This document shows positions 3,148-47,301 of a stretch of 64,000 bases of DNA, piece after piece. A model generated the notes under the pieces. The model searched no databases and had not been told where the DNA came from. It saw nothing but the letters and a program-made list of their open reading frames with translations. A program made the position numbers and the translations under genes. Numbering within the stretch: the stretch's first letter is position 1; each line of letters begins with the position of its first letter. This stretch comes from Patescibacteria group bacterium (GTDB taxonomy: Bacteria > Patescibacteriota > Patescibacteriia > UBA9570): the NCBI GenBank assembly GCA_041665365.1, contig JBAYIY010000007.1, forward strand, positions 11,103 to 75,102, read 5' to 3'.

Positions 3148-3266
3148 AAAATCACGCAGCAAGAATTTTCTATAATTCCATATCGAGCCGATCCAAATAG
3201 AGAATTAAATACGCATTAATAACCTAGCTGCGTAAGTAACTACTCGAAATGTACTTTTATGCAGGG
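3148..3266. repeat. copy 1 of a 110-120 bp direct repeat (partner at 4603-4713)
   Basis: aaaatcacgcagcaagaattttct[a/g]taattcc[a/g]tatcgagccgatccaaa[t/c]agagaattaaatacg... is shared with copy 2. Copy 1 has a 9-nt insertion (gcgtaagta). Confidence 0.85.
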
Positions 3267-4602: not shown

Positions 4603-4713
4603 AAAATCACGCAGCAAGAATTTTCTGTAATTCCGTATCGAGCCGATCCAAACAGAGAATTAAATACGTATTAATTACCTAGCTACTATTCGAGATGTAC
4701 TGCTATGCAGGGG
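4603..4713. repeat. copy 2 of the direct repeat, abutting the 3' end of tRNA-Trp
   Basis: Aligned by eye to 3148-3266. Its last bases (tgcaggg) overlap the tRNA acceptor 3' strand. Confidence 0.85.
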
Positions 4714-4778
4714 GTGCAGGAATCGAACCCGCCCTAATGGTTTTGGAGACCACTGTACTACCGATATACGAACCCCCT
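4708..4778 (-). tRNA. trnW: tRNA-Trp (anticodon CCA)
   Basis: The reverse complement folds as a cloverleaf. Acceptor AGGGGGT/ACCCCCT, anticodon stem GTGGT/ACCAT, loop CTCCAAA, T-arm GCGGG-TTCGATT-CCTGC. CCA is not encoded. Confidence 0.85.
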
Positions 4779-4849: not shown

Positions 4850-7105
4850 TTATTCGACGCGCACGGTTACGACGCGGGATAGACCGGCAGCATATTCTTC
4901 GGCTTTTTGGGCAGATGGTGTCCAGCGTACTTTGAATTTGGTTAAAGCGGTGACTGGTTTGTGCCAGCTAACGCGACCAGTGATGGAGGTTCTGGCAGAA
5001 TCAATTAATTTCCAATGGTTGGATGATAGTTTACGATATAATCTGACGCTTTGATGTTTTAACACGCGCCCTGTGGAAGCATCGGATAGTTTAGTGCGTA
5101 ATGTGACACGACTGTCGGTTGGTACGGTCAGGGTGGGCTTTCTGTGTTGATTAGCGCGTAAGGTCATTGCAGGTTTGGATTGCAACAGATAAATACCGCG
5201 ATCATTACCGGCGGTTAAACCATCGAACAATAAAGAGTAATATTGCTCACCGGTTAAACCGGTATAGTATAAGCCCCAGGTAGCACCGGCATCGGTGGAT
5301 TTATAGATTACAGCTTTACTGTTGGAGTCAGAGCCAGCTAAATATAGAGTAGAAGTATTTTGTAGAGTCAAAGCATAGAAGTTACTCAAGTCGAGTGCAG
5401 CGGTCAGTTCTGTCCAAGTGGTGCCACCGTCAGTGGTTTTATAGGCACCAACACTGCCACCACCTAAGGCATACATGATTTGATCGTTAGTTGGGTCAAG
5501 TAATAATTTGCGTATTTCTTCGCTCGGTGCACCGGATAATTGTGTCCAAGTAGCGGCACTGTATTTATAAATACCAACGCCACCGATGGCCGTACCACCA
5601 CTAGCACCAATTCCGGCAAATAAATCACCACTCTGATTCATTATTAAAGTTTGGACAGACAAATCATCTGGCACAACCAGGTCAGTCCAGGTTTCACCTT
5701 GATCGGTGGATTTTAGAACTAAACCGTGTTTATCTCGGTTCGGATTATTATTGGCGACAGCGGCGTAGAGAATAGTGTTATCATTTGGGTCAGCGATAAT
5801 ATCAGATACTTGCTCATCACAAGACACGGTGCCAAATAAAATGTTATCAGACCAGGTTGTACCACCGTCGGTAGTTTTATAGAGGAAACAAATACCACCA
5901 GCTAACACCGTATTCGGGGTTGCCGGATCCAACCAGACAGAGACACCGGCTTCACCGAGCATGGGGAATTGCCAGGTTGGAGCTGAGTCCGTAAAGTTTT
6001 CAGTTTTAGCATAACCATTATATGAGGCTGTCCAGACAATATCTTTATCCGTCGCTTGGACAATATCTGTCACCATTACACCAGTAATACCTAGATTTTT
6101 TGCTGTCCACGTGACACCACGATCAGTACTCTTTAATATACCAACTTGTCCGTCACCATATAAGACATCAATATCAAAGATATCAATCATTAGGTTGTGT
6201 TCCGGTAAACGGAGATGTTCCGTCGGAAAGGCTGTCCAAGTAACACCGGTATCATCGGAGTAATATGAACCAAGATAAGCTCGACCGGTGGTATCGAAGG
6301 TGGTGTTGATGGCATAAATATCGGCAATTTCAGACCAAGTGGCGCCACCATCAAAACTTTGACGTGCTAAATAATCAAAACCGCCGGCTAAAACTAAATG
6401 TAGTGGATTAGTTGGATTCACAGCTAATTCTTCAGACGATGAGGTGTCGGAAATATCGGCAAAAGTATACAACAAACTCCAGGTTGCACCATTGTCGGTT
6501 GAGCGATAGACGATTGGATTAGTTTCATCTGTGTTATTACCCACCACATAAAGAGCCGCATCGGCTGATGAATAAGCCATGTTCCAAGCGGCGAAGTTAT
6601 CGGCGATGTTTACAACATCAAAACTAACACCATTGTCAGTACTGATATTTAAGGTCGCCCCCTCAGTGATTTCGAACAGGCGGTCGTTGGCATATAACAA
6701 TACTCCGGCTGAAGTGTCGGAAATTTTTTGCAAGGTAACACCTTGATCGATGCTGCGATACAGCGCATTCGCGAAAGCCACAAACACAATACCGGTCGCA
6801 GGATCAACTTCAACACTCAAACTAGTACTATAATCTGATCCGGCCGGTACGCCCACCCAATTATCACCGTCATCAGTCGAATAAAAAAAACCATTTGGGG
6901 TATTATTAGCCACCGCGTAGAGAGTATCCGTAATTGGATCTTGCGCCATGTCCCAAACGCTGCCGCCATATAAACCTAAATTAGTGGCGATACTTTGTTG
7001 CTGTTGATCGTCAACAATTAAATCTTCAGCTTGGGCAGTTTTGAGCATACCACTGCCCAACACTACACTAAGCAAACTTACTAAAAATAATATTCGTCTT
7101 TTCAT
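4850..7105 (-). CDS. secreted BNR/Asp-box repeat beta-propeller protein
   Basis: 751 aa with a signal peptide. About 11 Asp-box motifs S/TxDxGxTW, e.g. STDNGATW, SFDGGATW, STDRGVTW, TTDGGTTW, STDQGETW, STDAGATW. Confidence 0.8.
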   Translation of the reverse strand: MKRRILFLVSLLSVVLGSGMLKTAQAEDLIVDDQQQQSIATNLGLYGGSVWDMAQDPITDTLYAVANNTPNGFFYSTDDGDNWVGVPAGSDYSTSLSVEVDPATGIVFVAFANALYRSIDQGVTLQKISDTSAGVLLYANDRLFEITEGATLNISTDNGVSFDVVNIADNFAAWNMAYSSADAALYVVGNNTDETNPIVYRSTDNGATWSLLYTFADISDTSSSEELAVNPTNPLHLVLAGGFDYLARQSFDGGATWSEIADIYAINTTFDTTGRAYLGSYYSDDTGVTWTAFPTEHLRLPEHNLMIDIFDIDVLYGDGQVGILKSTDRGVTWTAKNLGITGVMVTDIVQATDKDIVWTASYNGYAKTENFTDSAPTWQFPMLGEAGVSVWLDPATPNTVLAGGICFLYKTTDGGTTWSDNILFGTVSCDEQVSDIIADPNDNTILYAAVANNNPNRDKHGLVLKSTDQGETWTDLVVPDDLSVQTLIMNQSGDLFAGIGASGGTAIGGVGIYKYSAATWTQLSGAPSEEIRKLLLDPTNDQIMYALGGGSVGAYKTTDGGTTWTELTAALDLSNFYALTLQNTSTLYLAGSDSNSKAVIYKSTDAGATWGLYYTGLTGEQYYSLLFDGLTAGNDRGIYLLQSKPAMTLRANQHRKPTLTVPTDSRVTLRTKLSDASTGRVLKHQSVRLYRKLSSNHWKLIDSARTSITGRVSWHKPVTALTKFKVRWTPSAQKAEEYAAGLSRVVTVRVE

Positions 7106-9823: not shown

Positions 9824-12800
9824 TTATTGTTGTCCCATCAATGCACCCATATCTACTCCAGAGATTCTGACTAGTAATGGTAGTAGTTTTTGCAACTCAG
9901 GTATGCGATAAATGTCTTCAGGTTTTTCGGTAACTAAGGCCGCCATTACTTGTCTTTGTAAACGTTGTTGTAAGGCTTCAAAATTACCACCACTTGAGGC
10001 TAGGGCTTTGATTAAATAGTGAAAGTTTTTATCTGGTGTGCTATGTGGTACGCGCATAATACTGCCCACGAGATCTTTAAATAAATCAGCCGTCGTGGCA
10101 TTATCTCGTAATGCCTTATCAATTACTTCTTGCCAAGTTGCAATAGAACTTCTTTGGCCGGTATATTCATGTACAATTCTTGCCACAGGTTCAGTTTCAC
10201 TGCGCAGGCCTTGTTTAATTAAAATTAATTGTACTGTGAATTCAAGAAAATCTTGCTTCATTTTAGTTGTTTCGCACCGTCCGACACTGCCAGCGTCAAT
10301 TAAACCATAACGTTCATGACCCGGACGCAGATCAACAATACTATTGCCGGCATGAGGGTCGGCATGAAAAATTCCATCATCAGCCACTTGATACAACCAA
10401 TCAATGGCGGCACCGGCTTGAGCCGCTTCAACATCAAAAGTCATATATGGTTCAAGTTCTTTATCAGTTGTACCGGCTGTTTGCAGGCGAATAATCTCAG
10501 CCATAGATAAACCTTCATAAAATTCCTCAACAATCAACTGAATGCGTTGAGCCTCACCCTCACCGCGTTCACGTAAATACAATACCTGCGGCACGGACAC
10601 TGGTAAAGCTAACTTACCGACCTGAATTGTGGCACCACGTTTACGTATTTGCTGACCCAAATCACGGGCGGCGGATGCTTCTTTACCGAAATCAAGCTCA
10701 TCGGTCACTAGTTGGCGTATTTCCGGTACAAACCAATCTGGAATGTTATAACCTTCATGCTGTAAGGCAATAACAACACCATCCAGTACAGTCATATCTT
10801 CCGTAAAATTGCGCGCTGTGTTTGGTCGTTCCACTTTAAAAGCCACCGGTTCACCTTTAGCTGTGGTAGCCTTATGCACTTGTTTAATTGAAGCACTGCC
10901 TCTGCATTCACCAATTTCAGTTAGTTGCACACCGTCAGGACGCGCTTGAAATAACTGAGCGGTTCGAGCATAAGCAAAGACACCTCTTTTATTAAACGGT
11001 GCGCATTTATCTCGTAAGTTTCCTAAATCGGTGCGGATGGTTTCATCGCTAATCAAATCAGGCCGTTCTGATAACACCTGACCAACTTTTACACCCACCA
11101 CGCCTAAACCCTGCAGCACCATACGCAAAGCTTCACCGGGGCGTAACTTTGTTTCACGAATTTTTACTTCGCGTAATTCTTCCAAAAGGTTAACCAAGAA
11201 TTCTACGCGGCGCGCTGGTGAATAACCGGACATGACTTCCTGAAAAATAATTTTACCAATGGTTTGCAGTGGGGGATTATCGGCTAAAGCTTCCATGAAG
11301 ACTAATTCAAAAGTATCTTGAGAAAATTTTTGTAGAGCTTCTTTATCTGGTGTGTGGTTATGACCAACATAAATTGAAAAGGGAGCCACTTCACAGATGC
11401 CACCTTCACCCAATAACGCTGAATAAAAAATGGTACGGCGTTCTTCGGAACTTAACGCCCAAAAGGCGGTGACTTTATCTTGCTCATTAATGTTAAAAGT
11501 TTTACTGGCTAAATAGCGATCATCTGGTAGATCACCACCTAACAACCATAATAAAACCTCAGCCCGTTTGCTTCGATCACTGAACATGGCTAAATAATGT
11601 TTCATTGTTTCGGTAGCGGCAAAAGTCGGTGGTTCACCCGGTGGAAAATCTCCTGGATGATTAGCTTGATAGCGATAGGTTAAACGTTCTAACTCACTAC
11701 ATTGCACTTCGGTGGTGGCTAAGTCTGTCATGAGCGCAAACAAGATTGAATCACGATGATGAGTAGCCTTAGGGAAGCGTATTAATACGTGATCCAATAC
11801 AGCATGAAAGGCTTTATCATTCGCGGCCGCCACCATGGCAGGTAACGGTTCAGCTACATTGCCAAGTGTGGCGACACTGGCTTGGTGGTAATCAACGCGT
11901 AAATGATCAATTTCTAAATCAACGGCTTGACGTTCATACATTTCGCGCAAACCTCCCGTCAGAGACACCGCTGTATCCGTTAAGAAATCCGCGATGATTT
12001 TTTTTTGCGGCACGGAAATAAGATCACCCAAGCGTACTAAACCACTCACTTGAACGCTGGGGTATTTATCCATGTACGCATCTTCAACTATATTGGCACC
12101 AGCTACAACAAAATGATCACGCAAACTAATTGTGCGAGACGCTAAACGAATATTCGCTTTGGCCAGTTGATCCGGCGAACAAAACTTATTAACCACTTGC
12201 CACAATTCATGTTGGGCCAACACATGTAAAAAATAATCGCGAAACATACTTGGTTCGGGCATTAATTCCAGCACGTGAGCTCGAGCAGCCTTAAGTGTGT
12301 CTGGTGCTGACTCCACTCGTTCTAGTTCTGGCAGTAATACTCGTGCTGCATATTTAGCTTTATACATCGGGTCAAGCATAGTTTCGCCCTTATCAGTGCG
12401 TTCAACCGTATCGGAAAACAACAGTAACTCCGCACTGGTTGGGTAAGCCTCCGCGGCAACTTTTTGTTCTTGTTTAAGTTCCCTATGACGCTGTGTCCAA
12501 ACTTTATCACTTACGCTACGGTATTCATATGGATGAGAAGAAGTGTCCCAAGTATGTTTACGTACATTTTCAGCTTCATCCTCCGTTATTTTACCACGAT
12601 CTAATAACCATTTCAGTTTCCAGGCAATACCCGCTGCTGTACCTTCGAAATAGTTGGTTTTAACATACCCATTCACCACATCAGCTGAGCGGTTTACTTC
12701 GGCACCATCACCCAGCTCGGCTTTCATTAAAGCCATGAGTTGTTCAAGTTCAGCTGGTGTGCTGCCGAGACGATCAGCTCTTAACGCCAAACAAAAGTTA

Positions 12801-17075: not shown

Positions 17076-17609
17076 TTATACCAGATGCAACTTGTGTTCG
17101 ATTACCGTCACACGTTGATTGAGCTCGGTCACCTCAAACCGGTAAGCCACGTTGTCTTGGCGTAATTTAAGTTCATCCTGACCTTGTTCAAGATTAGATA
17201 ATCTATAATCAACTCGATCGAAGCGTTCATCGACCGAATCAAAACCCAGTTTAGTGGCCATGGCTAAATCATCTACCGTAGTAGTTAAATTATCCATTCT
17301 TGTGGATAAGCTATCTACTTTACCATCAACATGATCCACTTTAGTAGATAAACTATCAACCTTTGTATCTAAAATATCTGTTTTCGTCGATAAACCATCA
17401 ACTTTGGTATCTAAACTATCCATCCGTGTGGATAGAGTGTCAACTTTAGTGGTTAATTTATCCGTTCTCGTGGATAAACTATCTACAGTTTTAGTTAATC
17501 CATCCGTTTTTGTGGATGAAATACCAACTATATTAACTAAACTACTGACGATTGCTGTCAAACCGTCCATTTTGTCTGCTAGATTGTCTAGCGTGATTGT
17601 TTTCTTCAT
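17076..17609 (-). CDS. heptad-repeat coiled-coil protein
   Basis: ORF track gives 17076..17651; the Met at 17609 (MKKTITLDNL) is more plausible. At least 11 consecutive heptads of the form [VTM]D.L.TK. Confidence 0.6.
   Translation of the reverse strand: MKKTITLDNLADKMDGLTAIVSSLVNIVGISSTKTDGLTKTVDSLSTRTDKLTTKVDTLSTRMDSLDTKVDGLSTKTDILDTKVDSLSTKVDHVDGKVDSLSTRMDNLTTTVDDLAMATKLGFDSVDERFDRVDYRLSNLEQGQDELKLRQDNVAYRFEVTELNQRVTVIEHKLHLV
17265..17513. repeat. 21-bp (heptad-encoding) tandem periodicity inside the coiled-coil gene
   Basis: Repeating gtggataaactatc/tttagt... units are visible on the + strand. Confidence 0.7.
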
Positions 17610-17655
17610 AAAGTGTTTCCCAATACTTTGGCGGCGCTTTTGTAAACACACTAGC

Positions 17656-18477
17656 CTATTTTTTTGGCTTCGTCAACAGTGCATAACTCATTGGATCAAA
17701 CAATATTTCATCAGGTTTAATGCGTTCCTGCAGTAATAATTGCGCTTCCGGATGTCGCTTCTGAAAATCCAGAATGACACCTTCATTCTCGGCTTCATTC
17801 AAGGCACAAGTGGCATAAACTAATCTACCACCGGGTTTTAAAGCTAGCCACAAACCGTTGATTAGCGCGATTTGTTGTTGCTTTAATCTTTTTATACGCG
17901 ATGGTGTCCAAGCGGCTAAATATTTCTCACTGTGCCAGACATGTTTTTCTGAACTACACGGTGCATCCAATAAAATACCAACAAAAAAATCCGGATATTT
18001 TTTAAATAAAATTTCTGATTTTCCCAACTTTATATGAATATTGTTATAACCTGAATTTTGAAAAGTATCTCGTAAACGGTTTATTCTTTTATTGGAATTA
18101 TCATAACAATATAATTTACCGGTATTATTTAATTGGTGAGCCAGCAACGTGGCTTTACCGCCCGGTGCGGCACAAGCATCTAAAATAATTTCACTTGATT
18201 GAACGTTCAAAGCCAACACTGGTTTGAGTGAAGATGCATTCATGATATAGAACCAATTCAGTTCATAACCTGGTAAGGGTATACCAATATCTATACCATC
18301 CGGCCACAACCAAGCCGATTTATACCAATCTAATGGTTTAATACTCAAACCAGCTTTTTCCCATAAGTTAGTTAATTCTGTCAGGTATTTTGGATGAGGC
18401 AGAATGATCGGTTTTGGAGAAAAATTTAACAACTCAATCTGTTTCCCGTAATATTCAATAAATTGTGCTTTAGACAT
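17656..18477 (-). CDS. NOL1/NOP2/Sun-family RNA m5C methyltransferase (RsmB/RsmF-like)
   Basis: DACAAPGGKAT (SAM site), LLDAPCSSEK and YATCAL catalytic Cys motifs. Start moved to the Met at 18477 (MSKAQF). Confidence 0.8.
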   Translation of the reverse strand: MSKAQFIEYYGKQIELLNFSPKPIILPHPKYLTELTNLWEKAGLSIKPLDWYKSAWLWPDGIDIGIPLPGYELNWFYIMNASSLKPVLALNVQSSEIILDACAAPGGKATLLAHQLNNTGKLYCYDNSNKRINRLRDTFQNSGYNNIHIKLGKSEILFKKYPDFFVGILLDAPCSSEKHVWHSEKYLAAWTPSRIKRLKQQQIALINGLWLALKPGGRLVYATCALNEAENEGVILDFQKRHPEAQLLLQERIKPDEILFDPMSYALLTKPKK

Positions 18478-18501
18478 ATTTAGGTATACTATTACCACGA
18501 T

Positions 18502-18912
18502 ATGAAAAAAATTGCGATTCTCACAACTGAGATTAATCCAGAAACAATCACTGCCATGGTAGAGGCCGCTACCATTGAGGCGACTCGGCACGAGGCCACA
18601 ATTGTGACTATAACCAAAACATTGGGGTGTTTGGATATGCCGGTGATAGCAAAACGCTTATTACAACGCAAAGAGGTTGACGGGGTAGTGATATTAGGAG
18701 CCGTAGCACAAGGTGAAACAAAACACGATGAGTTGGTGGTGAACACGATGACGCAGGCCATTGTGCATTTATCTTTGCAGTATCAAAAACCAGTCGGGTT
18801 TGGCGTGATTGGACCCGGTGCGACACGCGAGCAATTCAACCACCGCGAGAGCGAATATGCGACCCGCGCGGTTCAAGCGGTGATGATAAACATCAAATTG
18901 TTACACGAATAA
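18502..18912 (+). CDS. ribH: 6,7-dimethyl-8-ribityllumazine synthase-like protein
   Basis: 136 aa. DGVVILGAVAQGETKHDELV and KPVGFGVIGPG resemble the DMRL synthase motifs (ALG.VIRG.T.H; PV.FGVLT). Confidence 0.6.
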   Translation: MKKIAILTTEINPETITAMVEAATIEATRHEATIVTITKTLGCLDMPVIAKRLLQRKEVDGVVILGAVAQGETKHDELVVNTMTQAIVHLSLQYQKPVGFGVIGPGATREQFNHRESEYATRAVQAVMINIKLLHE

Positions 18913-18947
18913 TTGAAGTGGACGAATATTATTCGTCCACTTCAATT
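18911..18947. terminator. bidirectional hairpin terminator between ribH-like and rpmB
   Basis: Perfect 37-nt palindrome: aattgaagtggacgaata-t-tattcgtccacttcaatt. Confidence 0.6.
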
Positions 18948-18962
18948 ATTTCACACAGGCGG

Positions 18963-19205
18963 TTACTGTTTTGATTTCGCCAACATTTTGCGCAGATCGT
19001 ATTTACGACCGGCTTTGTCCCACTTGGCCAAGGTGCGTAAACCGGAGGCTGTAATAGTGACAGTGATATGTTTACCTGTCGCCGGATTGAGCAAACGACG
19101 CTTTTGCAAATTGGCATAAACGCGGCGTTTGGTGCGGCGTTTAGAGTGGCTGACATTATAGCCAACCGATGAACTGCGTTTTGTTACTATACATTTCTTT
19201 GACAT
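18963..19205 (-). CDS. rpmB: 50S ribosomal protein L28
   Basis: 80 aa. MSKKCIVTKRSSSVGYNVSHSKRRTKRRVYANLQKRR fits the L28 consensus. Confidence 0.9.
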   Translation of the reverse strand: MSKKCIVTKRSSSVGYNVSHSKRRTKRRVYANLQKRRLLNPATGKHITVTITASGLRTLAKWDKAGRKYDLRKMLAKSKQ

Positions 19206-33197: not shown

Positions 33198-33208
33198 ATT
33201 TACCCCCA

Positions 33209-33303
33209 CGTATAGACATGCAATCATGTAGAGACGTGCCATCATGTAGAGACGTGCCATCATGTAGAGACGTGCCGGCGGCACGTCTCTACATGATGGC
33301 ACG
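33209..33303. repeat. family-2 palindromic repeat cluster (GTAGAGACGTGCC type)
   Basis: About 3.5 tandem 18-bp units catgtagagacgtgccat run into a 21-bp-arm palindrome, gccatcatgtagagacgtgcc-ggc-ggcacgtctctacatgatggc. Confidence 0.85.
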
Positions 33304-33322
33304 TATTTATCCACAAAGGTAT

Positions 33323-33450: not shown

Positions 33451-33966
33451 ATGCCAAAAAATCGAGCGCAAAAAGCGCAATTGCTTGAGGCAATAACGGG
33501 CGCACTCAATCATAAAGGGGTCGTGTTTTTTTCCCATACTGGGTTAAAAGTCACAGATCTAGAAGCTTTGCGCAAAGACATGCGCAAAGAAAACAGTACT
33601 GTGATGGTGGCTAAACGCAACTTATTATTACTCGCTTTAAAACAGCAAGGCATAGCAGTTGACGCAGCACAGTTGGATGGAGCCGTCGCCGTCGCCGTGG
33701 GTGATGACGAAATCACTCCAGCCAAAGTGGTAGCCACATTCAAGAAGAAACACGAAGCAGTAGCTTTCTTCGGAGGGTTAATGGAACATCGTTTCATGAC
33801 CGCCGCTGAAGTGCAACAGCTTTCCACCTTACCAGGTAAGCAAGAGTTATTAGCCAAATTAGTTGGTTCACTCCAGTCGCCCATGACTGGTATGGTCAAC
33901 GTCTTGGTCGGTAATGTCCGCGGCCTGGTTACAGCATTGGATGCGATTCGTGCCCAAAAAGTGTAG
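33451..33966 (+). CDS. rplJ: 50S ribosomal protein L10
   Basis: 171 aa. L10-like sequence immediately upstream of L7/L12. Confidence 0.9.
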   Translation: MPKNRAQKAQLLEAITGALNHKGVVFFSHTGLKVTDLEALRKDMRKENSTVMVAKRNLLLLALKQQGIAVDAAQLDGAVAVAVGDDEITPAKVVATFKKKHEAVAFFGGLMEHRFMTAAEVQQLSTLPGKQELLAKLVGSLQSPMTGMVNVLVGNVRGLVTALDAIRAQKV

Positions 33967-34016
33967 AGACATGCCATGGCATGACTCAACAAATTATTAA
34001 ATAATCATATATCTTT

Positions 34017-34485: not shown

Positions 34486-34501
34486 CCACTAAATTGTTGT
34501 C

Positions 34502-34591
34502 TTTACCCCCAACCCCCTTGCAGGGGGCTAAGAAAAGATTTTTCTAAATTTTCTTTCTTATCCCCCTGCAAGGGGGACAGAGGGGGTAAAA
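34502..34591. repeat. family-1 nested palindromic element (canonical copy)
   Basis: tttaccccc-aa-cccccttgcaggggg-ctaagaaaag...ctttcttat-ccccctgcaaggggg-acaga-gggggtaaa. Confidence 0.85.
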
Positions 34592-34603
34592 TCCGAGATG
34601 TTC

Positions 34604-38957: not shown

Positions 38958-38960
38958 AAC

Positions 38961-39035
38961 TTTACCCCCAACCCCCTTGCAGGGGGCTAAGAAAAAATGT
39001 TTTTAAAAAACTTCTTTGGGGGACTAAGGGGGTAC
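38961..39035. repeat. family-1 palindromic element (degenerate right half)
   Basis: tttaccccc-aa-cccccttgcaggggg-ctaagaaaaa...cttctt-tgggggactaa-gggggtac. Confidence 0.8.
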
Positions 39036-39087: not shown

Positions 39088-39951
39088 ATGAATTATCTTC
39101 GCATTGTCTTTGCCCATTGGATTGCCATATTGTTCATCACCACTGCGGCCGCGGCGCTTACGGTCGGGTTATCTTTTATTCCTACCCAGATGTATTCATC
39201 GGAGGTGTCTTTATTGATTGTGCAGAAACAAGCGCAGTATGTTGACCCTTACACATCACAGAAAGCTGCCGAAAAGTTGGGGCAAAATTTAGTGAATGTG
39301 ATCGACTCATTTGATTTTTTAAACCGCGTTTTGGCCACCGGCACAGTCTCACCCGATTTATTTAGTGCTTCCACTGATGCCCGTAAAAAACAATGGGAAG
39401 CCATGACTGATGCGGAAATGTTTAGTAACACTGGTGTGTTGCATATCACCGCTTATGCCCCCACCGCCGGTGCCGCTGAAGATGTGGTGATGGCCATGAG
39501 TACAGTGCTCACTACTAATTCATCAGATTATCATGGTGGGGGAGATACCGTTGAGATTAAGCTCATCGATGGGCCGGTCACATCGGATAGTCCGGTAAAA
39601 CCAAACATTCCATTAAATGGTGCGATTGCGGCTGTGTTAGGCCTAATCGCCTCGGCGGCTGTATTTATTGTTTATGAAGAAACCAAACGGTTACAAGATG
39701 AACAAGCCAAGGTGAGGTATGTGCAAACCGTCACGCCTGGTAGAGACGTGCCGCCGGCACGTCTCTACGATGATCGGATTGAAAAATCTGATCAAATCAT
39801 AGAGCCCCAATATAAGGTATTAGATGAATACCCCAAACAGCCATATGTGTATGGTGCGGAATTGAAGGATGAAGAACCTCGCCAAGGGGCGGGTGAACCT
39901 CGCCAAGGGGCGGGTGAACCGGTGTCGATGCAGGATCATTTGAAAAAATAG
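39088..39951 (+). CDS. Wzz-like polysaccharide chain-length determinant with repeat-derived C-terminal tail
   Basis: TM1 at the N-terminus followed by Y.SEV.LLI, and TM2 (GAIAAVLGLIASAAVFIV) near residue 190. The tail contains a family-2 palindrome and a 21-bp tandem. Confidence 0.55.
   Translation: MNYLRIVFAHWIAILFITTAAAALTVGLSFIPTQMYSSEVSLLIVQKQAQYVDPYTSQKAAEKLGQNLVNVIDSFDFLNRVLATGTVSPDLFSASTDARKKQWEAMTDAEMFSNTGVLHITAYAPTAGAAEDVVMAMSTVLTTNSSDYHGGGDTVEIKLIDGPVTSDSPVKPNIPLNGAIAAVLGLIASAAVFIVYEETKRLQDEQAKVRYVQTVTPGRDVPPARLYDDRIEKSDQIIEPQYKVLDEYPKQPYVYGAELKDEEPRQGAGEPRQGAGEPVSMQDHLKK
39740..39768. repeat. family-2 palindrome inside the coding sequence
   Basis: gtagagacgtgcc-gcc-ggcacgtctctac, translated as GRDVPPARLY. 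Confidence 0.85.
39874..39920. repeat. 21-bp tandem repeat (2.2 copies)
   Basis: gaacctcgccaaggggcgggt x2 plus gaacc, translated as EPRQGAG EPRQGAG EP. Confidence 0.9.
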
Positions 39952-40011: not shown

Positions 40012-40040
40012 TTGACAAAAAGTAGAAATAATGCTAAATT
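40012..40040 (+). promoter_or_regulatory. sigma70-like promoter opening the high-GC cassette array
   Basis: TTGACA (40012), 17 nt spacer, TAAATT (40035). Confidence 0.5.
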
Positions 40041-40064
40041 GTTCAGTTATTTTTGGGGACATAT

Positions 40065-40213
40065 GTACCCCCTAGCCCCCTTGCAGGGGGTAAAAGATAA
40101 CAATAAACTTATGCACCTTTTCACTATGAACAGTTAGTACGAACGGGGATACCATGAGTGTACCCCCAACCCTCATCTCTTATCCCCTTGAAAGGGGGAC
40201 AGAGGGGGTAAAT
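40065..40213. repeat. family-1 palindromic element, split/expanded copy
   Basis: gtaccccc-tag-cccccttgcaggggg ... about 70 nt insert ... gtaccccc-aac...ccccttgaaaggggg-acaga-gggggtaaa. Confidence 0.75.
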
Positions 40214-40760
40214 TCCGGAGTGGGTAAACACCAGTTAGTCTCACACGAATCAGATGAGAACACCATCAAAGTGAAGGTGTTGCCATGTGGTTCGTCTGTA
40301 TAGCCGGTGATCAGCAATGATCGCTGGCTGTCATGAATCACTCAACCCGAAAGGGTTAAGCACATTTACAATCTACTTTCCTACTTCGACTCGTTTCACT
40401 CGCTCAGTATAAATTTATTGAGCATGTAAGCTTGTCGAATGATCATCGGTAGCGATATACAGACCTCATCAATATACATACTTCTTTGAGTACACCACCC
40501 TAGCCCTCCTATTCTAGGAGGGAATAAGAATAAATTTTCTTACTCCCTTCCTACAATAGGAAGGGCCGGGGATGGTGTATTCCGGAGAGGGATACGTATC
40601 CGGAGAGGTCTCCATATCGCTACCGATGAAACCAACAATATCGGAGCTCGGTTCCCCAACGGGGAGACATTCGTCGCGGCAATTTCGCCGTGATGTATGT
40701 CCACCCGGACGTGAACCGGGACCGATCGACTTCACTCGACTACATGGAGCTACGAAAACA
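40204..40760 (+). promoter_or_regulatory. conserved structured 5' leader, copy A
   Basis: A 91-nt block (40204-40294) is identical to 42545-42635. Block 40443-40625 is near-identical to 42712-42917. Long-range stem cggtagcgatatacagacctc / gaggtctccatatcgctaccg. Confidence 0.6.
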
Positions 40761-42236
40761 ATGACGTTCAAGAACATCCTCGCGATCTTCACGTTCATCT
40801 TCGCCATTCTCGCCCCGGCGACCGTCGCCCAGGCCCAGGAGAAGTGGGAGGATCCAAAAGTGGGTCCGTTCACTCTCGGGTACTGGTCGAAGCTCGATGC
40901 CGGCGCGACCAGTGTCGACGCCGCGGCGGCCGGGATCATGAAGAACTTCAAGGAGTGTGAGAGCAAGTACGGCCAGGGTGGGTGCTACATCCAGTTCGAA
41001 TCATCTACTGACATCAACCGCTGGGACAACACCAAGAATGGCAAGGACGACGCATTGCACGGTGGGCTCGGAGAGGGACGCACCGCGGTCCTCAAGGACG
41101 CGGTGTTTTCTCGATCCGCAAGGATCAAGGAATACTCGGTCACCGACTACCCCCACCACGGTGCGAAAGATGGATGGCGGTACTCCTGGGCGACGATCAT
41201 GCCCAAGGAAGGTGCCTCCGCGATGCCGAAGGTGTCGGCCGACCCCAACAAGAGGTGGAGCTTCCTCACGGAAGTGCTCCTCCGCCAGACCGATAACCTC
41301 TGTCCCACGATGGTGCGGGCGGACGCGGTCACGCGAACCTACACCCTGCAGGGTCAAACCTGCGGGTGCAGCACGTTCGATGCAGTGCCCAGCACCCGCC
41401 AGTTGGAGGTCAGGAACGACCTCACCTGGTTGGGAAAGGTCGTCGCGGACCGCTCGAAGTGGTCCGACGCGAAGACTTTGACCTGGACGGAAGTCCGGGC
41501 CGCTCTCGAGGAGGGCACCGAGTCCCGCGTCATCGAAGTCGACGCGCTCGGCGATCCGTCCTCCACGCCCGACGGTCTGTCCGTTGAGTTCGTGGAGTCG
41601 GAGACCCTGCTCCGGGTGCAGTTCCCGGACAGGTGCTCGCCGATCCTCGACGCCGCGAAGGCAGAGGCCGACGCCAAGGCGCAAGCCAAGGCTCAGGCCG
41701 ACGCCGACGCCCGCGAGTCCGCAAGGCTCGCGGCGTACAACACCGACTTCATGGTCGGTGGGTCGGTCGCGGGTACGGGGACGTTCATCCCCAAGTACAG
41801 CCCCTTCAACCCGGGCAGGGGTTTCGACCTCGCCGGGCACGTCGAGGGCGGTGCGGTGATCGGCGGCGGGTACGGCGCGTGGGCTTTCGGGCTCGGCGTC
41901 GGCCCGTCGTGGGACCCGAACTGCCTGACCCCCGGCCAGGTTGACCTCGAGGCCTTCACCGGCCCGTGGCTCAACAGGCAGGGGAAGGTCGGGTTCTCCG
42001 CCTTCCTGAACGGATCTGCGGGCTTCACCATGTACAACGGTGAAGTCCTCACCCCGCGGTACCGCCTGGGTCTCAACCTGGGCGTGCCCGTGCAGGTGGA
42101 GCGTGAGCTCTACCTGGTTCCCCAGATCGGCCCCGTGGTCGACTGGGTGAGCGGGCAGGTGCAGGCGACCGGCGGCTTCGCGATCACCGAGCGAGTCGGG
42201 ATCGCGGGTGGTCTGCGGATCATCAAGACGTTCTGA
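40761..42236 (+). CDS. high-GC exported protein with C-terminal beta-barrel-like domain (foreign-type)
   Basis: ORF track gives 40572..42236. The true start is likely the ATG at 40761, after GGAG, because it begins the signal peptide MTFKNILAIFTFIFAILAPATVAQA. Strong GC3 bias. Gly/aromatic-rich last ~170 aa, ending in Phe. Confidence 0.7.
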   Translation: MTFKNILAIFTFIFAILAPATVAQAQEKWEDPKVGPFTLGYWSKLDAGATSVDAAAAGIMKNFKECESKYGQGGCYIQFESSTDINRWDNTKNGKDDALHGGLGEGRTAVLKDAVFSRSARIKEYSVTDYPHHGAKDGWRYSWATIMPKEGASAMPKVSADPNKRWSFLTEVLLRQTDNLCPTMVRADAVTRTYTLQGQTCGCSTFDAVPSTRQLEVRNDLTWLGKVVADRSKWSDAKTLTWTEVRAALEEGTESRVIEVDALGDPSSTPDGLSVEFVESETLLRVQFPDRCSPILDAAKAEADAKAQAKAQADADARESARLAAYNTDFMVGGSVAGTGTFIPKYSPFNPGRGFDLAGHVEGGAVIGGGYGAWAFGLGVGPSWDPNCLTPGQVDLEAFTGPWLNRQGKVGFSAFLNGSAGFTMYNGEVLTPRYRLGLNLGVPVQVERELYLVPQIGPVVDWVSGQVQATGGFAITERVGIAGGLRIIKTF

Positions 42237-42429
42237 TCTGAGTAGGAAAGTAGGTTAGGGTGAGGGGGTATAGGTTGTGTCGCAAGTCTGCGAACAATCT
42301 GTACCTCCTCCCCACCTACACAAATATGAATAAGGGATAATGTCTCTCGAGGTAGTGACCTCGGTAAACATGGTTCCTGATTCAACTGAATAAGGAATCG
42401 GTCTTTAAAAATAATCTATGGTTAAAACC

Positions 42430-42553
42430 TTTACCCCCTCTGTCCCCCTCTCGCCTCTGCGAAGCCGCTACGGCGGAGCACGGTGCAGGGGGATAAGAAA
42501 AGAAGTTTTAAAAATATCTTCTCATAGCCCCCTGCAAGGGGGTTGGGGGTAAA
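42430..42553. repeat. family-1 palindromic element (inverted orientation) with a GC-rich insert in one hairpin loop
   Basis: tttaccccc-tctgt-ccccct[38-nt insert]caggggg-ataagaaaag...-ccccctgcaaggggg-tt-gggggtaaa. Confidence 0.8.
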
Positions 42554-43053
42554 TTCCGGAGTGGGTAAACACCAGTTAGTCTCACACGAATCAGATGAGA
42601 ACACCATCAAAGTGAAGGTGTTGCCATGTGGTTCGAAGAGTCATAGTCGATCAGCAATGATCGCTTGTGACCACGAAACACAATTTGTTCTTTAAAATCT
42701 TCTGCTAAGAATCATCGGTAGCGATATACAGACCTCATCAAGCATACACACTTCTTTGAGTACACCACCCTAGCCCCCCGCCTTGCCGGCGTGGCAGGTC
42801 CTATTCTAGGAGGGAATAAGAATAAATTTTCTTACTCCCTTCCTACAATAGGAAGGGCCGGGGATGGTGTATTCCGGAGAGGGATACGTATCCGGAGAGG
42901 TCTCCATATCGCTACCGGTGAAAACAATACCGGCGTGCTCGGTTCCCAGAATGGGAAAGATGCGGTTGTGGGAATGTTCCCATGACATGTGTTCTACCCT
43001 GTTCAAAAGAACCGGGACCGATCGACTACACAATTTCGACTGGAGCTACGACA
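42545..43053 (+). promoter_or_regulatory. conserved structured 5' leader, copy B
   Basis: See copy A. Same block order, with the middle segment shortened and a 22-nt GC-rich insert at about 42786. Confidence 0.6.
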
Positions 43054-43839
43054 ATGACGCTCAAAAACATCGTGATCTCGCTCGCGCTCGTCGTCGGTTG
43101 CAAGATGGGCCCGGTGCAGGAATGTGACTCGGACTCGGACTGCTTCGAAACCAACACCAACTCCGATACCGACACCGACGCGGACACGGACACGGACGCC
43201 GACGCTGATACGGACACGGACTCCGACACCGATACCACCGAAACCGACGTGGACAACGACGGCGACGGGTACACCGTGGACGGCGGGGACTGCAACGACG
43301 CCAACGCCAGCGTCCACCCGGGCGCGACCGAGTACTGCAACGGCGTCGACGACGACTGCAACGGGTCGATCGACGACAATGACACCGACGGGGACGGGTA
43401 CGTCTCCGACGACTGCACGTCATATGACGGAGTCGCCGGCCTCCCCGGTGGTGATTGCGCGGATTCGATCGGGACGACGGCGTCCTGGTCGAACAGCGAT
43501 ATCCACCCGGGGCAGTTGGAAATGTACGACTGGATCGACACTAACTGCGACGGCACCGCCGACGATGGATGTAGTATGTTGTGCGACACCGACGGCGACG
43601 GATACGAGAATTTCGAACAGGGCAGCGGGCCCGAGTTCGAGTGCGTGGACGCGTCGTTCGTGGCGGATCAGTCCGCCTCGAGCAGCCCGTTCGATACGAC
43701 GATCTCGTGGACGTATGCCTCCAGCGGAGTGGTTTACTCCGGTGTGAACGCAACGTGCGAAATGACGGCGGCCCAGCAGGTCGATCCGTCAACCTGGAGG
43801 ACGATCACGTCCATCCAGGCCGAGATGGCCACCCGCTAA
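43054..43839 (+). CDS. high-GC lipoprotein with (D-T)n tract and MopE-type Cys-rich motifs (foreign-type)
   Basis: Start at the ATG at 43054 after GGAG. Lipobox LALVVGC. DTDTDADTDTDADADTDTDSDTDT tract. DGDGYTVDGGDCNDANASVHPGATEYCNGVDDDCNGSIDD. Confidence 0.7.
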   Translation: MTLKNIVISLALVVGCKMGPVQECDSDSDCFETNTNSDTDTDADTDTDADADTDTDSDTDTTETDVDNDGDGYTVDGGDCNDANASVHPGATEYCNGVDDDCNGSIDDNDTDGDGYVSDDCTSYDGVAGLPGGDCADSIGTTASWSNSDIHPGQLEMYDWIDTNCDGTADDGCSMLCDTDGDGYENFEQGSGPEFECVDASFVADQSASSSPFDTTISWTYASSGVVYSGVNATCEMTAAQQVDPSTWRTITSIQAEMATR

Positions 43840-44562: not shown

Positions 44563-45966
44563 TCAGCGATCCATTTGGCCGTGTGGCCTTGTCTCCACAA
44601 CAATCATGGCTAGCACTGTCATATATGTCCACATCACGGCGGTACCTTGGAGTAGATTATCACTGACACTAATTGTTAGCGCGGCAATAATTAAGGCCAT
44701 ACCAAACAGAGCATAGTGTTTTTGCCAGCTGTCTTCATGGTGGCTAACATAATTCCAGAATAGTGTTACTAACAAACCTAGCCAGAAACCAAGATACAGA
44801 GCCAAACCAACGAAGCCGGTTTCAATGGCTAAACGGAGATAATCATTATGGGCTTCAGGGTCATCAAACAAACCGATATCGCCCTGTTGTCTTAAAGTCA
44901 CAAAGTTGCCTAAACCGTAACCGAGAAGGGGAGAATTGAGGGTTTGCGGTGCCATAGTTTGAAACACCTGTAAGCGCCAATCAATCGAATCGGCTTCCTC
45001 ATCACGACTGGTTAGGCGATGTAAGAGGTTTATTTTATTTAGATCATAATTAAAAGTATTGATGGTAACAGTGTTGATTACTTGCCACAACAAAAATGCA
45101 CCGACTAAGACAGTAGCAATAGTGAGTAATTGTTTACGATAATATTTTAGGCCAATTAATATTTGAATGACGACAAAACCAATCCAGGCACCTCGAGTAT
45201 AGGTGAATAATAACATCACCAACCCCAAGCCGATTAGCCATGGATATATTAAAGACCGTTGTTCAGGTTTTTTAGTCAGTTGGGTGATTAATAATAAATT
45301 TATGATACATACCAAATAAAACCCAAACACATTCGGGTGACCAAAGGTGCCATAGACGCGGTTATCTAAACCACCAAATGATAGCCCGGTGGCGGTAATA
45401 AGCTGCACCAAGCCAGCGGCTAATGGTATCACCAGAGCCACGGCTAGTACCGGTGTTAGCCGCGTGATACTGTGTGGTTGTGTGGTAGCCACGTGGTAGG
45501 CAATTATAAAAATAATCACAATCGAACTGAGGCGGAGCCATTCACTCAATGAGATAAATGTATCCAAGCTGACACCCAAGGTGGCGGCTCCCCAGATTAA
45601 AACTCCAATCAGCCAGCCCAATTGGGTAGTGGCACTAAGTTCAACCCGTTCTCTAAGTAGAATTACTAAGAACCACACAATCACCAATATTGCCACCATG
45701 GAAGTTAAATTTATAGTGACTGATCGAATGGTTAAAAGGCCATAGCCAGAAAATATATCAATGATCGGGCGAAAGATGAGTAGGGCATATAAACCATACT
45801 CGGTTTTTAATAAAAAAATTGGGGCGATAATTACAATGGCCGCTAAGCCAATGGCGGATGTAGCAGAAATATCTCCAAATACTATCCAGCCTAATACACT
45901 TAACACTGTTAGGCTGTATATAATTAAAAGTATGGTGTTGAATTTTGAAAGTGGGGAGAAAGACAT
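44563..45966 (-). CDS. O-antigen ligase-like (Wzy_C/RfaL family) membrane protein
   Basis: 467 aa, about 11 TM. YTRGAWIGF and EAHNDYLRLAIETGFVG motifs. Confidence 0.75.
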   Translation of the reverse strand: MSFSPLSKFNTILLIIYSLTVLSVLGWIVFGDISATSAIGLAAIVIIAPIFLLKTEYGLYALLIFRPIIDIFSGYGLLTIRSVTINLTSMVAILVIVWFLVILLRERVELSATTQLGWLIGVLIWGAATLGVSLDTFISLSEWLRLSSIVIIFIIAYHVATTQPHSITRLTPVLAVALVIPLAAGLVQLITATGLSFGGLDNRVYGTFGHPNVFGFYLVCIINLLLITQLTKKPEQRSLIYPWLIGLGLVMLLFTYTRGAWIGFVVIQILIGLKYYRKQLLTIATVLVGAFLLWQVINTVTINTFNYDLNKINLLHRLTSRDEEADSIDWRLQVFQTMAPQTLNSPLLGYGLGNFVTLRQQGDIGLFDDPEAHNDYLRLAIETGFVGLALYLGFWLGLLVTLFWNYVSHHEDSWQKHYALFGMALIIAALTISVSDNLLQGTAVMWTYMTVLAMIVVETRPHGQMDR

Positions 45967-45987
45967 TGAGATTATTATAACACATCA

Positions 45988-46025
45988 ATCCAGTAGAGAC
46001 ATGCCATGGCATGTCTCTACTGGAT
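45988..46025. repeat. perfect 38-bp palindrome (family 2 variant)
   Basis: atccagtagagacatgcca|tggcatgtctctactggat. Confidence 0.9.
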
Positions 46026-46029
46026 TGAT

Positions 46030-46103: not shown

Positions 46104-47159
46104 TTACTTGACGGCGACCGTAGGGTTCGCCACCACGAGGATACTCCCCATGATGGTCTCCACGTCGCCGGCGTAATTCCCGCCGGCATTGTGGAGGTCG
46201 ATCCCCTCGGCCTTCACCACCTCTTCCCGGACGCCGTCAGCGACCGGGAAAGCCACCTCGCCCTCGCCGTACGAATCGTCGACGACGAAGAAGAAATGAT
46301 CCCGGGCGACTTCACAAAGTCGTTTGCCCGGGAGAGTGGTCAGACTCGAACACTTGAACCCCTCCGGCAGCACGAGGATGCTGCCCATCGTGAGTTCCGG
46401 AATCGTTCCGGTGTACTCACTCAGGGCGTAGCTATCCCCGGAGCCGGCGAGGGGCCCGGTGAAGCAATCGTAGCCCGACGAGGCGCCATCGCCGCAAGAG
46501 AGGTGGGTATGATCCACCTCAATGGGCAACGGCCGCCCGATCGGGCCAGTCTGAGTCAATTCTCCCACACGCACCGCCTGGGTCGCGGTCGTGTGGGAGC
46601 CACCGTGAGCCCCAACCCAGCGGGTGGAGTCATATCCCTTCTCACACGCGCTGAACGGCGCGGAGTCGGGGAGGACCCACCCGGACGAGCCGTCGAAGTA
46701 GCTGATTTCAACAACGGTACCGTCAGGCTGCAGGGCCGTGACGATCCCATTGTTGTACAGATCATCCGACGTGTCCCTCATGGCGAAGGAATCGGGGAGG
46801 TAAACCTCCCTCGTTCTCCTGCCATCGGGGGCTGTCACGGTCACCGGTGACGAGTCTTTCGACCCGTCGAGGACAAAAACCGGGTCGATGTCGACCCAGT
46901 CAAGTCCTCCGTCCCAGTCCGTCTCGACCGTCCGGGCGATCTTGCGATCAACCTGGAGGTCACGGATCTGGAACGGCACCGAGGCCCAGCACTCGGCCGG
47001 GGTCTCGGTGTCGGTGTCCGCGTCAGTGTCAGAGTCGGTGTCCGTCTCCGCTTCGGGGCAGGTCGCCCCGGGCAGAGACGGATCACAATTGAGCTCTCCA
47101 CACCCCGCCACCAAAATGGTGACCAGGACGAGGAGCAGCTCGATGATGTAGCGCAACAT
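46104..47159 (-). CDS. high-GC lipoprotein with (D-T/S)n tract (foreign-type)
   Basis: 351 aa. Lipobox LVAGC. ETDTDSDTDADTDTE tract. Strong GC3 bias. AAGGAG lies 6 nt before the ATG. Confidence 0.7.
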   Translation of the reverse strand: MLRYIIELLLVLVTILVAGCGELNCDPSLPGATCPEAETDTDSDTDADTDTETPAECWASVPFQIRDLQVDRKIARTVETDWDGGLDWVDIDPVFVLDGSKDSSPVTVTAPDGRRTREVYLPDSFAMRDTSDDLYNNGIVTALQPDGTVVEISYFDGSSGWVLPDSAPFSACEKGYDSTRWVGAHGGSHTTATQAVRVGELTQTGPIGRPLPIEVDHTHLSCGDGASSGYDCFTGPLAGSGDSYALSEYTGTIPELTMGSILVLPEGFKCSSLTTLPGKRLCEVARDHFFFVVDDSYGEGEVAFPVADGVREEVVKAEGIDLHNAGGNYAGDVETIMGSILVVANPTVAVK

Positions 47160-47272: not shown

Positions 47273-47301
47273 AATATACCCTATTTTTGACGTTTTGTCA
47301 A
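47273..47301 (-). promoter_or_regulatory. near-consensus sigma70 promoter driving the third high-GC gene
   Basis: Minus strand: TTGACA, 17 nt spacer, TATATT, then a leader of about 110 nt. Confidence 0.55.

Follow-up and report, generated by a model that had tools for sequence, protein, structure and literature searches.

A Sec-exported protein with a predicted C-terminal beta-barrel and lasting GC-rich codon usage in an envelope-glycan locus of Patescibacteria

OmpM and SlpA, the tethers of diderm Terrabacteria, carry an N-terminal SLH domain followed by a coiled coil and a C-terminal barrel (bioRxiv 10.1101/2021.05.31.446380). The candidate phyla radiation (CPR) has been placed within the Terrabacteria, and porins and SLH domains are reported to have been lost in a monoderm clade formed by Chloroflexi, CPR and Dormibacteraeota (bioRxiv 10.1101/2021.05.31.446380). 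A second arrangement is that of OmpA and OprF, which combine an eight-stranded outer-membrane barrel with a peptidoglycan-binding OmpA_C domain. Here, we describe gene A of a Patescibacteria group bacterium, found in a stretch of 64,000 nucleotides (hereafter the window; GenBank assembly GCA_041665365.1, contig JBAYIY010000007.1, positions 11,103 to 75,102). The parts of its product, protein A, are known, in that the predicted folds are those of OmpA/OprF and the domain order recalls OmpM. What is new is the combination of these parts, their restriction to a supposedly monoderm, porin-losing clade of Patescibacteria, the association of gene A with two lipoprotein genes in a triad, and a persistent, gene-specific excess of GC at third codon positions (GC3). 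Full-text literature searches on beta-barrels, OmpA and GC content in CPR/Patescibacteria brought up no description of such proteins or GC-rich gene sets, and a search on codon usage gave nothing relevant. We regard a clade-specific, barrel-anchored envelope protein encoded in a conserved module as the probable description of protein A.

Predicted architecture of protein A

Gene A is the open reading frame (ORF) at 40761-42236 on the + strand, coding for 491 residues and nested in a longer ORF that opens at 40572. The ATG at 40761 is the preferred start because the alignment of the leaders of gene A and of its neighbour gene B (see below) reaches that ATG and the first six codons; a start further upstream is disfavoured since the in-frame extension differs by indels between the two leader copies. 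Gene A is matched by 12 other protein clusters, with E values down to 6e-84, and is thus a real gene, as a preliminary description made from the sequence had taken it to be, and no chance ORF in GC-rich DNA. The other features listed there, a Sec signal with the cleavage site AQA/QE, cysteines in the N-terminal two thirds, a linker and a Gly-rich C-terminus (20% Gly) ending in GGLRIIKTF, are likewise all present. The signal peptide, read from the sequence, covers residues 1-25 (40761..40835, +), and, of the 13 family sequences in the alignment, 12 have a hydrophobic N-terminus ending in A-x-A; the exception is P0009, a short member without the N-terminal region.

An AlphaFold model of protein A, built on an alignment of the 13 family members, has a mean predicted local distance difference test score (pLDDT) of 76, rising to about 90 for residues 328-490. 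The last 165 residues, at a pLDDT of about 90, are predicted to form eight long antiparallel strands of 13-18 residues each, which bears out the barrel-like C-terminus proposed earlier; this predicted eight-stranded beta-barrel, ending in Phe, comprises residues 328-491 (41742..42236, +, stop codon included). Each strand presents hydrophobic and aromatic residues on one face and Gly, Ser, Thr or Arg on the other, an alternation that, in the model, suits a barrel with its exterior turned to lipid better than a soluble one. The aromatic end is also a property of the family, the C-terminal residue of the 13 representatives being F in ten, W in two and L in one, and the C-terminus of protein A is like the aromatic-terminated beta-signal of outer-membrane proteins that depend on the beta-barrel assembly machinery (BAM). 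Alternatively, the C-terminal domain could be a soluble or wall-associated eight-stranded barrel of the avidin, YceI or lipocalin type, in which the terminal Phe would be incidental. We consider this quite improbable, given the length of the strands, the resemblance of the Gly/Ser/Thr/Arg face to the interiors of OmpA and OmpX, odd for a soluble surface, and the persistence of F or W as the last residue in all but one of the 13 divergent family members.

The barrel is preceded by a single long helix in the AlphaFold model (residues 292-324, 41634..41732, +), which corresponds to a linker rich in Ala, Lys, Glu, Asp and Gln with the sequence AKAEADAKAQAKAQADADA. Upstream of it, the secondary structure in the model delimits a Cys-rich alpha/beta middle domain (residues 162-290, 41244..41630, +) with the pattern DNLCP...C.C...FPDRC. 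Cys203 and Cys292 are invariant, and Cys181 and Cys201 are kept in at least 90% of the sequences. The N-terminal domain (residues 33-148, 40857..41204, +) resembles OmpA_C and Pal, a peptidoglycan-binding fold, and was placed there because positions 27-116 of the family profile weakly match OmpA C-terminal domains (E 0.22 and 0.76). It includes a motif, GSSD...GGLxxRA, reminiscent of the OmpA_C signature, in which Arg107 is kept in at least 90% of the sequences and the Asp is invariant among the four closest members; the match to the diaminopimelic acid-binding site of OmpA is a motif resemblance only. The assignment of this domain to OmpA_C is a prediction from fold plus a weak sequence signal (E 0.2-0.8). 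The OmpA_C domain (PF00691) was not recognised by sequence in protein A, no match was obtained to the SLH domain (PF00395) or to the Pfam families OmpA and OMP_b-brl, and a sequence search of the PDB returned no significant match. All family members but one short sequence share the signal peptide, the Cys-containing N-terminal domains including FPDRC, the Ala/Glu/Lys-rich linker and, towards the C-terminus, a region rich in Gly that contains the motif DPNC.

A GC-rich gene triad in an envelope-glycan locus

The family of protein A comprises 13 clusters, the query included, among 1.84 billion cluster representatives covered by a full HMMER scan. Word-indexed protein searches with protein A or with the family alignment returned only the query, the low-complexity linker having probably swamped the index, and a metagenome scan with the family alignment gave no match. 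The host is confirmed as a member of the Patescibacteria, as the preliminary description had supposed in calling it CPR-like: the BipA encoded in the window is 60-72% identical to those of metagenome-assembled genomes (MAGs) assigned to Microgenomates, Doudnabacteria, Curtissbacteria and 'Patescibacteria group', and no more than 56% identical to other entries under non-Patescibacteria names, and the gene C product (see below), from an 85.6-kb contig, carries the NCBI label 'Patescibacteria group bacterium'. The family is specific to a lineage within the Patescibacteria. MAGs of this clade are the NCBI assembly with locus tag WCV88_04165, GCA_964385285.1, and the JGI contigs Ga0172278_1317 and Ga0490030_000014, and many family members occur in the samples of SRR22387912 and related runs.

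The GC content of gene A is 0.58-0.73 along its length, against a window average of about 0.41. Its GC3 is 0.86, against 0.35-0.46 in eight neighbouring and housekeeping genes (Wzz, Wzy, GT4, GHL15, BipA, SufB and others), and codons ending in G or C are favoured in every codon family; TTA, for example, goes from 0.46 to 0 and AAG from 0.19 to 0.85. The codon usage is indeed alien to that of the neighbours, as first noticed, but it is a property of three genes in the window and not of a single one. Three blocks, at 40.8-42.2, 43.1-43.9 and 46.1-47.2 kb, reach a GC content of 0.60-0.73, and each matches one ORF: A, B (43054-43839, +) and C (46104-47159, -), with GC3 values of 0.86, 0.85 and 0.79, respectively. 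Four other signal-peptide proteins of the window have an ordinary GC3 of 0.36-0.39, and the idea that secreted proteins are generally GC-rich in this genome was rejected on that account.

Both partners of gene A code for lipoproteins. Gene B has the lipobox LVVGC, D-T-D repeats and two MopE-type Cys-rich motifs (PF11617, E 5e-17), and its orthologues follow gene A in five related loci (L084, L148, L149, L150 and L153). Gene C has the lipobox LVAGC, an acidic D/T/S linker and a globular domain; its family counts 14 proteins, and all six that were read in context are syntenic (the window, L084, L001, L148, L149 and L150/L151). Between the GC-rich genes lies a gene of the O-antigen ligase/polymerase family (Wzy_C, 44563..45966, -; PF04932, E 8e-21), with a GC3 of 0.41, which served as the synteny anchor. 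The left border of the module is formed by a gene for a Wzz-like chain-length determinant (39088..39951, +; Pfam Wzz, E 2.5e-6; GNVR, E 4.6e-5, at 23.7 bits under the curated cut-off of 27.7), which occupies the same position in L150, L093 and L091. Near its 3' end, this ORF contains a perfect 21-nt tandem duplication (39874-39915) that encodes EPRQGAG twice. Gene A sits in an envelope-glycan locus whose gene order in the window is DUF5656, trypsin-like, Wzz, A, B, Wzy (-), C (-), GT4, GHL15, and then more glycosyltransferases and enzymes of sugar-nucleotide synthesis or conversion.

The same mosaic of low and high GC is common to every family member with readable flanks, and the module is found in at least six related genomes. 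The entire locus, from DUF5656 through the sugar-nucleotide genes, is present in L150. The module was seen as A, B, Wzy and C in L084, as C, Wzy, A and B in both L148 and L149, and as C, GT4, Wzy and A in L001; L153 and L086 have only the adjacent A-B pair, and L087 has gene A alone with low-GC DNA upstream. Compared with the window, L084 and L148, two genomes (L149 and L150) carry the A-B pair in inverted orientation. Identity of Wzy among the module-bearing genomes ranges from 45 to 87%, and values as low as 45% imply that the arrangement is old. In a Wzy-based scan covering 60 loci, the 57 more distant ones were all devoid of A, B or C.

Since the same genes are GC-rich in the relatives too, the triad is a stable feature of the lineage and not a recent import. 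Abrupt shifts in GC content are a classic sign of a chimeric contig, and foreign GC-rich reads could in principle have been joined to a Patescibacteria contig during assembly or binning. Such a chimera is hardly credible, and is excluded on the grounds that the junctions, the gene order and the mosaic recur in assemblies made independently (Logan, ENA, JGI, NCBI and GEM), with different pipelines and from different samples; A and B have, moreover, leaders that are host-like in GC content and duplicated within the contig.

The preliminary description had proposed a one-off acquisition of gene A from a high-GC diderm, perhaps a host or a neighbour; on this reading the ORF would be foreign DNA that is not yet ameliorated. 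A GC3 of 0.86 against about 0.4, with all codon families shifted to G/C endings, speaks for such a transfer, as do the OmpA-type barrel, the OmpA_C-like domain and the MopE motif of gene B, all typical of diderm bacteria, and the drift towards AT of synonymous sites in gene C of L148 (see below), as foreign GC-rich DNA would show. Against it, the family is confined to 13 clusters, the relatives share the GC mosaic and the locus, and those on longer contigs have Patescibacteria neighbours; no donor was found, and no GC-uniform donor contig was seen. The GC-rich DNA forms three separate blocks of the size of a coding sequence (CDS), with a Wzy gene of host composition between them and with conserved host-type promoters, and synteny persists at a Wzy identity of just 45%. 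The borders contain no integrase, transposase or tRNA, the only tRNA lying 36 kb away from the GC-rich genes, and a viral collection held no relatives of A or C. A recent transfer is therefore very improbable, and the one-off acquisition is not upheld. The preliminary description had itself held that its interpretation would fall if the closest homologues were common in related low-GC CPR genomes and matched them in composition: the closest homologues do come from related CPR genomes, but they do not match the composition of their hosts, being GC-rich as well. Two further candidates were rejected, carriage by a phage or plasmid, on present data, for want of viral relatives, and a recently acquired genomic island, in view of the lack of mobility genes nearby, the three separate blocks and the number of related genomes with the module.

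Three observations were made on loci related to the module. In the more distant Patescibacteria L093 and L091, whose Wzy is 34-35% identical, the slot between Wzz and Wzy (L093 9160-11344, -; L091 4400-7844, -) holds GC-elevated genes non-homologous to A, with a GC3 of 0.61-0.70 against 0.18-0.33 in the neighbours for L093; they code for one or two lipoproteins and for a protein with a signal peptide and a C-terminus that is rich in Gly and aromatic residues and ends in F or W. These proteins look like outer-membrane proteins by eye, with no profile similarity to A and no Pfam match, and the slot may hold the same kind of module made of different proteins. In L149 (13152-14474, an NCBI MAG), the A-like gene appears to be in at least two pieces, with tblastn matches resuming after the break and a 168-aa ORF that carries only the barrel end; the split may be a frameshift or mark a pseudogene. 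In L148, genes for LGT (prolipoprotein diacylglyceryl transferase) and for a DsbA/thioredoxin-like protein lie a few kb from the module (17572-19118, -), consistent with lipoproteins being processed, and disulfides formed, outside the cytoplasm.

Mosaicism, GC3 excess and the structure of the leaders

Within the family of protein A, the ranking of members by similarity differs from domain to domain. P0004 has only the barrel in common with A (53% identity), P0003 and P0007 are strongly similar to A in the middle domain (55% and 49%) and only weakly so in the barrel (30% and 24%), and P0010 shares the N-terminal domain and the barrel and not the middle domain. Two close genomes, L087 and L150, are mostly 90-99% identical over a leader of about 800 nt and 90-98% identical over the last 600 nt of gene A, which code for the barrel, whereas the N-terminal two thirds of the CDS are only 39-76% identical. 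We read this pattern, from the sequences, as a signature of recombination or allele replacement. The identities of gene C are, in addition, incongruent with those of Wzy: L149 is nearer L084 and L148 in C (61-63%) and nearer L150 in Wzy (71%).

In the four genomes in which GC3 of the triad was computed, A, B and C have values of 0.79-0.94 against 0.35-0.59 in their neighbours; in L148 the values are lower, 0.55-0.62 against 0.35. The sister genomes L148 and L084, with Wzy 87% identical, differ in the GC3 of gene C, which is 0.55 in the former (10001-11230) and 0.80 in the latter (5856-7094). When synonymous changes in gene C were polarised by parsimony with four outgroups, GC-to-AT changes exceeded AT-to-GC changes by 33 to 3 in L148 and by 7 to 4 in L084; GC-rich outgroups bias the count, while the contrast between the sisters stays. 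In Wzy the changes are balanced in both genomes. The 33 to 3 ratio in L148 places the GC3 of gene C far above mutational equilibrium. The excess decays in one lineage and is held in others. In this clade A, B and C have long been written in GC-rich codons, and their codon usage is not the mark of a recent transfer.

The folds of protein A may nonetheless be of ancient foreign origin. One could imagine that the genes were acquired long ago from a diderm and that GC-rich alleles have since circulated among related Patescibacteria, repeated allele replacement keeping GC high. The incongruence between C and Wzy, the mosaic of domains in A with its sharp identity breakpoint between close genomes, the inversion of the A-B pair in some genomes and the decay of GC3 in L148, where replacement is seemingly absent, are all in favour of this scenario. 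Exchange among low-GC genomes cannot by itself, however, create or keep a GC3 of about 0.9; a GC-rich source or a GC-favouring bias would be needed and none was found, and the barrel, the conserved part that is not replaced, is the most GC-rich segment. We hold this explanation to be doubtful, if worth keeping in mind. Whatever its cause, the A/B/C triad offers a clean natural case of gene-specific GC3 excess, held over deep divergence, decaying in one lineage and coinciding with mosaics, which can be used to tell repeated import from biased gene conversion and from selection at synonymous sites.

A putative sigma-70-type promoter for gene A is found at 40012..40040 (+), with TTGACA, a 17-nt spacer and TGnTAAATT (10 of 12 consensus matches and the TG of an extended -10); in L001, L150 and L087 the same block precedes the A orthologue. 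A similar putative site lies ahead of gene C (47273..47301, -; TTGACA, a 17-nt spacer and TATATT, 11 of 12 matches); L001, L148 and L150 keep it in front of their C genes, and it is also conserved between the leaders of L001 and L149. A consensus scan of the gene B leader revealed no sigma-70-like site of its own. If transcription starts at the first of these sites, the palindrome-dense leader of gene A (40047..40760, +) would form a 5' untranslated region of about 710 nt. The leader of gene B (42545..43053, +) is a paralogous copy of it, 100% identical over blocks of 91 nt and 31 nt and 98% identical over one of 129 nt: over about 570 nt, 40204-40780 recurs as 42545-43075, in blocks 98-100% identical and with similarity extending into the first six codons.

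Folding of the leaders was tested against dinucleotide shuffles in 14 regions. The leader of gene A has a minimum free energy of -311 kcal/mol against -200 for the shuffles (z = -13), and the A-B intergenic region (42237-43053) has a z of -14; overall, z lies between -9.7 and -14.2 for A and B leaders in the window, L001 and L150 and is -6.7 in L084, against +0.3 to -3.3 for control intergenic regions. Folding is just as strong on the antisense strands and uses few G-U pairs, so that the leaders are best treated as clusters of Watson-Crick DNA palindromes, and the claim of a structured RNA leader, based on z of -10 to -14, was dropped. No Rfam match was obtained in the leaders at gathering or permissive thresholds, an alignment of the 3' leader ends of 13 genes was too poor for covariation analysis, and an exact leader 23-mer is absent from GTDB genomes and viral contigs.

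Leader blocks are common to A, B or C within each genome, while between genomes only the promoters and a short motif, CCGGGAC(C), persist. In the window, the motif is part of CCGGGACCGATCGAC (40716..40731, +), 45 nt before the start codon of A. In six genomes it occurs on the sense strand at a distance of 42-124 nt ahead of the start codon of A or B, at 40716 and 43012 in the window, 5281 in L001, 15546 in L150, 298 and 2356 in L153, 3 and 2215 in L152, and 5 in L003, and also just upstream of a B-like gene in L086 (2147) and L149 (14888), that is, in eight genomes in total. It may be a regulatory site.

Some palindromes of the leaders belong to genome-wide families that resemble repetitive extragenic palindromic (REP) elements. 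A REP-like palindrome, TTTACCCCC..CCCCCTTGCAGGGGG, is found between genes in both orientations (34501-34595, 38960-39007, 40069-40090, 40178-40217 and 42430-42553), and two inverted copies bracket gene A. A second family, GTAGAGACGTGCC..GGCACGTCTCTAC (33207-33309, 33963-33990, 39740-39768 and 45984-46029), forms an array with a spacing of 18 nt upstream of the L10 gene and single hairpins after several genes, one of which falls within the 3' end of the Wzz ORF as annotated. Elsewhere in the window, an 82-nt direct repeat (3148-3229 and 4603-4684, 94% identical) brackets a 1.4-kb segment containing an ORF for a signal-peptide protein (3444-4517, -), and abuts a tRNA-Trp gene (4707-4778, -); the segment could be a small insertion at the tRNA or a local duplication.

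Proposed role of protein A and comparison with known systems

We propose that protein A is exported by Sec and that its C-terminal eight-stranded barrel, of the OmpA/OprF type, would lodge in a lipid bilayer, the helix of about 5 nm keeping the OmpA_C/Pal-like and Cys-rich modules clear of that membrane. The N-terminal modules would bind peptidoglycan, or else a glycan polymer made by the surrounding Wzz/Wzy/glycosyltransferase locus, and protein A would act as a wall- or glycan-binding tether, working with the lipoproteins B and C of the same module. The tether function is put forward tentatively, at somewhat short of an even chance. Recombination among relatives would shuffle or replace the N-terminal modules while the barrel and the leader stay conserved; these modules would then be the diversified, ligand-facing part of the protein, possibly co-varying with the strain-specific glycan of the same locus.

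Several points weigh against this proposal. The 13-sequence alignment behind the model is shallow, a single-sequence AlphaFold prediction of protein A is poor (pLDDT 38), and no part of the protein matches a Pfam or NCBIfam model. Patescibacteria are regarded as monoderm (PMC8871954; bioRxiv 10.1101/2021.05.31.446380), and consequently neither a membrane nor an insertase that could receive such a barrel is known; no gene for BamA, Lpt, Lol or Tol-Pal was seen in the sequence that was read, namely the annotated ORFs of this 64-kb window and some 60 kb of flanks from relatives. Insertion by BAM from the periplasm would place the N-terminal domains inside, where they should be conserved, and they are hypervariable. 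The proposal also gives no account of the GC3 excess. Hypervariability does fit an exposed position of the N-terminal domains, which could arise if the barrel were re-inserted from outside into the cell's own membrane or inserted into the membrane of another cell.

As CPR belong to a clade said to have lost porins and outer-membrane tethers, protein A raises the question of which membrane it occupies. An unrecognised outer layer, the cell's own membrane and the outer membrane of a host are the candidates, each of which would change the view of the epibiont surface and of attachment. That genuine OmpA-type barrels exist in this clade, in an outer layer of its own or as anchors in a host membrane, together with a gene-specific force acting on GC3, is in our estimation unlikely. 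Were it so, either a second outer lipid layer would be tied to the wall by protein A, and a CPR lineage would have kept or regained a diderm-like envelope, or the barrel would be planted from outside in the outer membrane of a Gram-negative host, with the N-terminal domain gripping the wall of the epibiont. In both cases a gene-specific force would hold three envelope genes at a GC3 of about 0.9 in a low-GC genome; a recombination hot spot with GC-biased gene conversion could supply it, and so could selection acting on the mRNA.

On the fold assignments, protein A contains both halves of OmpA/OprF in reversed order, the wall-binding domain coming first, and, unlike these proteins, has a Cys-rich domain and a 33-residue helix between the two. 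It also differs from OmpA in that the loops of the barrel are short and conserved and the non-barrel part is hypervariable, the opposite of what is found in OmpA, and in that its host phylum is considered monoderm. Protein A does not show the arrangement of type Va autotransporters, with a 12-stranded barrel and a linker helix inside the pore. The order of domains in the AlphaFold model, with a wall-binding module (33-148), a helix (292-324) and a barrel (328-490), is that of OmpM, from which protein A departs by the lack of a detectable SLH domain, by a barrel of eight strands in place of a large porin and by a helix that is a single segment.

In polymorphic, recombining loci for bacterial surface proteins, the 5' region and the anchor are conserved and the exposed modules vary. 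The locus of gene A differs from these in that one A gene is seen per locus and the window is without silent cassettes or an invertase, and we know of no counterpart among them to its extreme GC3 offset. It resembles them in that the leader, signal peptide and anchor of A are conserved while its central and N-terminal part is replaced between close strains, in the shuffling of domains across the family and in the homogenisation of leader blocks within each genome.

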